NCBI RefSeq assembly: GCF_029227855.1
Contig: NZ_CP074356.1
Length of the DNA stretch: 64,000 nucleotides
Reading direction: 5' to 3' (one strand)
Source: Escherichia coli
GTDB lineage: Bacteria; Pseudomonadota; Gammaproteobacteria; Enterobacterales; Enterobacteriaceae
Shown: one piece after another, positions 52,305 to 53,230 of the stretch
How positions within the stretch are numbered: the stretch's first letter is position 1
Layout: every line of letters starts with the position of its first letter
The notes under the pieces: generated by a model
The model's input: the letters and a program-made list of their open reading frames with translations, nothing else
Told to the model about the DNA's origin: nothing
The model's database searches: none
Translations under genes and position numbers: made by a program

Positions 52305-53230
52305 TTATCTGGAATGTCGGTACCTTTTATACTCTTCAACAATCAGGTCATGCAGCATTTCGCCGGTACTGAGTCTTCTGACCCTCGATAATTCTTTGAG
52401 CTGCGCCCTGGTTTCTGCGTCAAGAAAAAACTGTACATTGACTTTATCTTCCTGCATTTTTTTGTACTTGCGCTGCGCCTTGGCCTTATTGAAACTGTTT
52501 CTGAAATTTTTTATATCGTCAGGTGAGGTGAGTGGACAGGTAACCCATATGTCAAATGAAAGGTGAATTGCGTGGTAAATATCAGCAGAACCAGGAAAAC
52601 TGGCCAGTTTTTCCAGTGCAATATTTTTTCCCTTCAAATAATTCCATGTCCATATGCATTCATGTTCGTTCTCCGGGAGGAGGTAACTGAAAGGACTCTT
52701 TGATTTAAATGCCCGCATCCATCTGTCTTTGGTCTGGATTATCCACTCATCCCGCAAATTCTTATCAGAAAGAATATCGAGAACTCTGAGTATTTGTCTG
52801 AACTGTGTCGATGAGTCCGACGGGAAGGCATTCCCTTCTAAATACTCTTCTTTAAGATACAGTTTATTCTTTTGAAGCAAGTCTGCGCTTATTTTTGTCC
52901 TGTTATTCTGGATAAACTGCATCAACAGATACCAGGAAAATAAGCATGCACGTTCACTGCCCGCGATCCAGGATATTTTTTCCAGGGGCACCAGGGAGGC
53001 CAGTGCCTTCAGACGCATACCAGAAATGATTTGTTCAAGTTCAAAATCTGAAAGTGTGATGTTCAGATTTTCTCTGTTTTTTTTATGTAAGCGATAAAAC
53101 GTTCCGGGGGATCATAAACATTAAGGGGCAGTACGGAGATATTACGCTCTCCAAGATAATAAGAGTAATACGCATTTGTTCTTTCATTCATAACCTTATC
53201 CGACAAAATTTTCTGAACCATCCTCTTTCT
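52305..53230 (-). pseudogene. Hypothetical island gene interrupted at a T8/A8 homopolymer
   Basis: 237-aa ORF (52305-53018) continues upstream in another frame (MVQKILSDKVMNERTNAYYSYY... from 53230) across the homopolymer at 53088-53095. Confidence 0.4.

Follow-up and report, generated by a model that had tools for sequence, protein, structure and literature searches.

Within the 64,000-nucleotide stretch of Escherichia coli DNA analysed here (the window), a minus-strand gene at 52305..53221 is broken at a homopolymer, and this allele is probably a loss-of-function pseudogene, arisen at a slippage hotspot, of a conserved 305-aa island gene, with no programmed switch involved. Replication strand slippage at a run of nine A would have deleted one A, a step deduced from the one-base difference observed between the alleles. 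Ribosomes starting at the ATG at 53221 would then read 48 native codons and four out-of-frame ones before meeting a stop at 53063, and about 257 codons would be lost, which encode an all-alpha domain, predicted with high confidence, and a putative ribbon-helix-helix (RHH) DNA-binding motif at the C-terminus. The run would behave as a mutational hotspot where the same -1 allele arises repeatedly in E. coli and is then stably inherited, and purifying selection for the intact frame would hold this pseudogenising allele at low frequency. Standing alone, the observation is a minor one, a further accessory gene frameshifted at a homopolymer, in an allele that annotation pipelines already mark as a pseudogene in other strains.

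The frameshifted gene measures 917 nt, compared to 918 nt for the intact allele, which encodes the 305-aa hypothetical protein WP_000250236.1. Two ORF fragments, both on the minus strand, lie in different frames on either side of the run, which the downstream frame already reads through without a stop. The 5′ fragment (53063..53221) encodes 52 aa, namely 48 native residues followed by T-E-K-I and a TGA stop. The 3′ fragment (52305..53018) encodes 237 aa, starts at an internal methionine (Met69 of the intact protein) and contains most of the helical domain together with the putative C-terminal RHH motif. The slippage site itself, at 53077..53084, is a T8 on the plus strand, and hence an A8 on the coding strand. 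In the intact allele the same place reads ATA AAA AAA AAC (I46 K47 K48 N49), which makes a run of nine A, and adding one A to the window sequence produced a single ORF of 305 aa, identical to WP_000250236.1 of E. coli E24377A. Taking one base away (A7) did not restore the frame. The first-pass annotation had proposed that the 237-aa ORF continues upstream in another frame across eight T residues, and this is what the 52-aa ORF, the T8 run and the effect of a ninth A confirm. It had also expected a protein of about 300 aa if one base was either added or removed; the addition works, the removal does not, and the run, which it had placed at 53088-53095, was displaced by 11 nt. Homopolymers of at least 8 bases are found just three times in the 64-kb window, and one of the three falls exactly at the frame break relative to intact homologues.

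Sequences that could serve for expression were searched around the two fragments. A GGAG is found 7 nt 5′ of the ATG at 53221, where the 52-aa ORF starts; no Shine-Dalgarno sequence was found before the internal ATG at 53018, where the 237-aa ORF starts. Upstream of the gene, a promoter-like site on the minus strand (53283..53311; TTGACC, 17 nt, TAAACT) agrees with the consensus at 9 of 12 positions, a consensus match only. Between the stop of the gene and the start of the next one, which encodes a GTPase, a terminator-like GC-rich hairpin followed by UUUUGUCUUUUUU is present on the minus strand (52232..52285), with a fold energy of -18.4 kcal/mol (z = -2.1). On the 5′ side, some 1.2 kb (53222-54406) separate the gene start from the next sizeable gene (54407-55024, minus strand). 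This interval contains no convincing ORF and no Rfam match, and related genomes annotate just 65-aa hypothetical ORFs there.

The relation between the two fragments was examined by comparison with intact homologues. Over 1051 nt, E24377A differs from the window solely by A9 in place of A8, and its annotation shows one CDS of 918 nt (WP_000250236.1, 305 aa). By megablast, this 1051-nt region is present in 1541 of 5426 complete E. coli genomes, the best matches being 1052 nt long with 99.9% identity. Full-length homologues of 304-306 aa, with 49-79% identity, occur in Salmonella, Serratia fonticola, Enterobacter mori and Edwardsiella, and a profile search among 1.84 billion representative proteins returned 270 clusters (at 50% identity), nearly all of 285-340 aa and aligned end to end. 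The segment spanning the break, FIAYIKK[NH]RE, is among the best-conserved residues of the family. Because relatives of about 300 aa are found in four other genera and in 270 clusters, the fused form is the norm for this family, and the two ORFs of the window are pieces of one 305-aa gene. The possibility that the two parts are never fused, which would have spoken against the first-pass annotation, is contradicted by the fused 305-aa form in ∼90% of E. coli copies, as well as in other genera. Its suggestion of a decayed gene is supported by these fused homologues, and also by PGAP, which annotates the gene as a pseudogene (“frameshifted”) in the A8 genomes 266917_2, EC958, S88, DP033 and OZ039410. 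As expected of a pseudogene due to a homopolymer frameshift, intact collinear homologues exist and a single-base indel in the run explains the frame break.

Two further alleles deserve mention. One candidate for another gene broken at the same run, a diverged homologue of 237 aa (P0015, locus L003), was examined and rejected. This sequence, at L003:3173-4082 in a read-archive assembly (71% identity), is split into ORFs of 57 aa and 237 aa, but its run reads ATC AAA AAA AAC, an A8 that is in frame, and the shift occurs a few codons downstream. It would correspond to an independent inactivation at another site. In E. coli M45 (L099), the 1051-nt region has A8 and also one additional base at another place, which seems to lie just upstream of the CDS at 9581, and the gene is still called frameshifted by PGAP.

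The window gene differs from its nearest relatives by the base of the run alone, and its exact allele is found in no complete RefSeq genome, which raises the question of an error in sequencing or assembly, with A9 and an intact gene in the actual genome. Comparison with MLI114 over 24 kb (35 SNPs and three one-base indels) could be taken in the same direction, as all three indels are one-base homopolymer shortenings in the window. Two of these three are nevertheless shared with other genomes. The first is a C3 at 51333, shortly after the GTPase stop and before the agn43 regulatory region, found in the window, in E24377A and in 8 metagenome contigs, compared to 32 contigs with C4; the second is a T9 at 63835, for which the exact 89-mer of the window is present in only 23 genomes. 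Since two of the three shortenings recur elsewhere, there is no sign of systematic under-calling of homopolymers. Moreover, A8 exists as a natural allele in S88, in two independent assemblies of EC958, and in 9 of the 78 metagenome contigs, including several with SPAdes-style names. Given that 6-14% of natural copies carry A8, it is more likely that the A8 of the window is a real allele, and we consider an artefact unlikely.

Run length was examined in two collections. The locus is present in 1370 of the 5426 complete E. coli genomes; an exact A9 copy was counted 1230 times, A8 80 times and A10 6 times, using queries of 87-90 nt for which a single difference brings identity below 99%, and genomes with two copies may count twice. 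Metagenome contigs, which are independent of the complete genomes, were scanned with two flanks leaving 7-12 free bases between them. Among the 78 contigs, 63 were A9, 9 were A8 and 2 were A10, and the remaining 4 had in-frame, interrupted nine-base runs, either AAAGAAAAA (3 of 78) or CAAAAAAAA (1 of 78), with the gene intact. When a nine-base run and a complete gene were both present, the gene was intact in 62 contigs and truncated elsewhere in 3. OFF alleles represent 6-14% of natural copies, and 11 of the 14 inactivating events in the metagenome contigs map to this 9-bp run. Two 7-base runs nearby showed no length variation (72 of 72 and 59 of 59). The locus is thus a clean natural A9 hotspot in E. 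coli, which dominates the inactivation of its gene (11 of 14) and yet is held in frame.

Once the run was removed, the gene sequences fell into 47 backbone haplotypes. A8 and A9 were both found on five identical backbones, one of which also carried A10, and the backbone of the window is common to five A9 copies. On the EC958 backbone, the exact 1051-nt A8 allele is present in 34 complete genomes, and a version one base longer, at the same chromosomal site, is present in ∼7 genomes; the three that were checked directly were all A9. OZ038769 (A9) and OZ039410 (A8) are separated by 2 SNPs and the run over 18.5 kb, and DP033 and OZ039410, both A8, by 2 SNPs in 20 kb. The pair formed by OZ043763 (A9) and OZ039410 (A8) was also considered, and was uninformative, with 261 SNPs in 20 kb. 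We infer that the run lost a base at least six times independently and gained one at least once. Slippage is recurrent, because A8 and A9 lie at least six times on the same backbone. The strand-slippage origin put forward initially gains support from these lengths, A8, A9 and in one case A10, occurring on otherwise identical backbones. They toggle the frame there, as a hypermutable tract does, and the neighbouring 7-base runs are invariant. A8 is also stably inherited within one clone, which includes the ST131 strain EC958.

Conservation of the run was next compared to that of the protein. At the same place, the Serratia orthologue reads ATC AAA AAA AAC (A8, in frame), the Edwardsiella orthologue ATT AAA AAG AAT, and an E. 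coli paralogue with 53% identity ATC AAA AAA CAT (A6). Some E. coli alleles have the run interrupted by a synonymous AAG. The run of nine A exists in E. coli because the Ile46 codon is ATA. The tract is therefore not maintained across homologues and strains.

Other runs of the window give a scale for this variability. At 63835-63843, 10 kb from the gene, lies a non-coding T run (T9 in the window); among 60 genomes taken at even spacing from 1691, ∼60% had T10, 37% T9 and 2% T8. In contrast to this freely drifting T9/T10 run, the coding run is ∼93% A9. Among 38 distinct intact alleles of the gene, pN/pS is 0.33. The difference between coding and non-coding runs reads as a signature of purifying selection on the frame, against a high local mutation rate. 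The other A9 run of the window (16758-16766) is A9 in 4240 genomes (98.6%), A8 in 38 and A10 in 23; it lies inside the annotated small ORF ytiD, beside iraD/idlP, in the core genome, and so is not neutral. Length changes at this place would frameshift an ORF of 47 aa. A8 is ∼7 times more common at the target run than at the ytiD run (6% versus 0.9%), an imperfect comparison, and at least part of the excess would come from clonal expansion of the EC958 lineage.

These data also bear on the proposal that the run is a true contingency locus, that is, a site of selected and reversible ON/OFF phase variation of the RHH protein. Recurrent -1 and +1 changes on identical backbones, and A8 and A9 isolates 2 SNPs apart over 18.5 kb, are a pattern also expected of a reversible switch, and the phase-variable Ag43 gene is 1.9 kb away. 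The run is close to the 5′ end, 15% into the ORF, as reported by Orsi et al. for poly(A)/poly(T) tracts, a placement that these authors read as enabling reversible inactivation (PMC2831843). Yet OFF alleles amount to no more than 6-14% of copies, 34 genomes of a single clone carry A8 without change, and orthologues do not conserve the run, which in 4 of the 78 E. coli contigs is also interrupted (AAAGAAAAA or CAAAAAAAA) while the gene stays intact. The neutral run nearby is far more variable, which indicates constraint rather than exploited variability. For E. coli with functional mismatch repair, a run of nine A ranks near the shortest tracts known to act as switches. We therefore hold a selected switch to be quite improbable, and the slipped-strand switch that had been suggested from first inspection is not supported, as OFF is the minority state, A8 is clonally stable, the run is not conserved, and the neutral run is more polymorphic.

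Known systems help to place the pseudogene reading. Like the tracts of Bordetella pertussis (Gogol et al. 2007, PMC1891110) and the poly-G/C tracts of Neisseria and Campylobacter, the run slips, toggles the frame and is polymorphic among relatives. Classical contingency tracts, however, vary within single cultures and are kept across strains; here OFF is a minority, stable within the clone, and the run is not conserved. In inlA of Listeria monocytogenes, a poly(A) tract at the 5′ side loses one A to give a short product, recurrently, and the intact allele predominates, all of which is similar to our case. The inlA run differs by its length, 7 bases versus 9 here, and by having its reversion rate and phenotype established, reversion occurring at ∼1000 times the point-mutation rate (Orsi, Bowen & Wiedmann 2010, PMC2831843).

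Another way for the run to matter would be at the level of expression, if the A8 allele yielded a useful full-length protein by addition of an untemplated A or by ribosomal frameshifting, at an intact or down-tuned level (a “pseudo-pseudogene”). The correction needed for A8 is indeed +1, and among transcription errors at A/T runs in E. coli, +1 insertions dominate, rising exponentially with length up to 9 (PMC5574713). A8 also persists in a successful clone. Some full-length protein may then be made from the A8 allele by +1 transcriptional slippage, by analogy with such runs. Frames are likewise joined across an A/T run, with +1 giving the long product, in mxiE of Shigella (T9), in dnaX of Thermus thermophilus (A9) and in IS elements. 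Shigella mxiE and Thermus dnaX use 9-base runs for their programmed slippage, and eight A is below the 9-base runs that were analysed as slippage-prone (PMC1088944). In genes with programmed slippage, all homologues share both the out-of-frame layout and the length of the run (PMC1088944); here A8 is the variant, ∼90% of copies have A9 in frame, and the shorter runs of the orthologues keep the frame as well. The out-of-frame layout is thus a minority state, not conserved in homologues, which is the opposite of the programmed situation. Since this layout is not the conserved state, the A8 allele does not appear to be a case of programmed slippage, and rescue of a useful protein is, in our opinion, very unlikely.

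Returning to the gene product that the window allele would have lost, no significant family was found for the 305-aa protein in Pfam, NCBIfam, PADLOC, PHROGs or a PDB sequence search, and no literature was found under the RefSeq protein accessions. An AlphaFold2 model built from a 64-sequence alignment is all-alpha, with a mean pLDDT of 90.7 and a pTM of 0.81. Residues 11-110 have a pLDDT of ∼92-96, and being well predicted they indicate that the 68 N-terminal residues absent from the 237-aa ORF belong to the fold. The last ∼45 residues follow a strand-helix-helix pattern, and match RHH proteins at 1.7-2.3 Å in structure but only weakly by profile. The likeness to RHH proteins of the CopG/Arc/MetJ superfamily (TraM, FitA, TacA, MatP) concerns this C-terminal part of the 305 aa. 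On the basis of the model, the product would be a putative RHH DNA-binding protein, usually paired with a GTPase.

In the window this partner is encoded downstream, at 51348..52220 on the minus strand, by an intact gene of 290 aa of the MMR_HSR1 type (Pfam PF01926; compare E. coli YeeP). The gene for the 305-aa protein stands directly upstream of a GTPase gene of ∼290-330 aa in E. coli, Serratia, Edwardsiella and a distant metagenomic relative (L004, L006, L008, L017), and in this last relative the two genes overlap by 17 nt. Two other distant relatives have no GTPase and adjoin an integrase. The GTPase gives weak PADLOC matches to the dynamin-like LeoBC (E = 6e-8) and LeoA (4e-4). Because the terminator-like hairpin parts the two genes, the frameshift seems unlikely to act strongly on the GTPase through polarity. 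The host island is an integrative, CP4-like one, resembling the cryptic E. coli K-12 prophages CP4-44/CP4-57, and its cargo includes an AlpA-type helix-turn-helix gene, YagK/YfjJ-family genes, Ag43, antirestriction, RadC and the CbtA/CbeA toxin-antitoxin. The 305-aa protein could regulate CP4-like islands by binding DNA, or help to maintain them, a role that we propose only from these predictions. The pseudogene thus draws attention to an uncharacterised, widespread island family of ∼300 aa, which has no Pfam family, has a predicted C-terminal RHH motif and is usually located just upstream of a YeeP-like GTPase. This uncharacterised RHH-GTPase island module is the most useful by-product of the analysis.

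The Ag43 gene (48130-51051, minus strand) has a phase-variation layout and is located ∼1.9 kb from the frameshifted gene. Its upstream region (50995-51231, minus strand) contains three close GATC sites, at 51194, 51207 and 51226, and overlaps an Rfam match to the IS102 sRNA (73.6 bits, E = 4e-11). Three closely spaced GATC sites upstream of the Ag43 gene are the layout of the agn43 Dam/OxyR epigenetic phase switch. If the nine-A run was an evolved, low-rate reversible switch, or a slippage-buffered “pseudo-pseudogene”, tuning the putative RHH protein that would control the RHH-GTPase module beside Ag43, heterogeneity at the Ag43 island would gain a second layer in E. coli, one based on sequence. 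We give this combined scheme little chance of being correct, and retain a slippage-hotspot pseudogene as the probable explanation.

Finally, a DUF905-family gene downstream of the Ag43 gene (∼47864-48059, minus strand) carries a 20-bp deletion near 47900, relative to an intact allele in L013 (OZ043763), and is labelled “frameshifted” by PGAP in E24377A and MLI114. It would represent a second decayed gene of the island, the deletion not being at a homopolymer.
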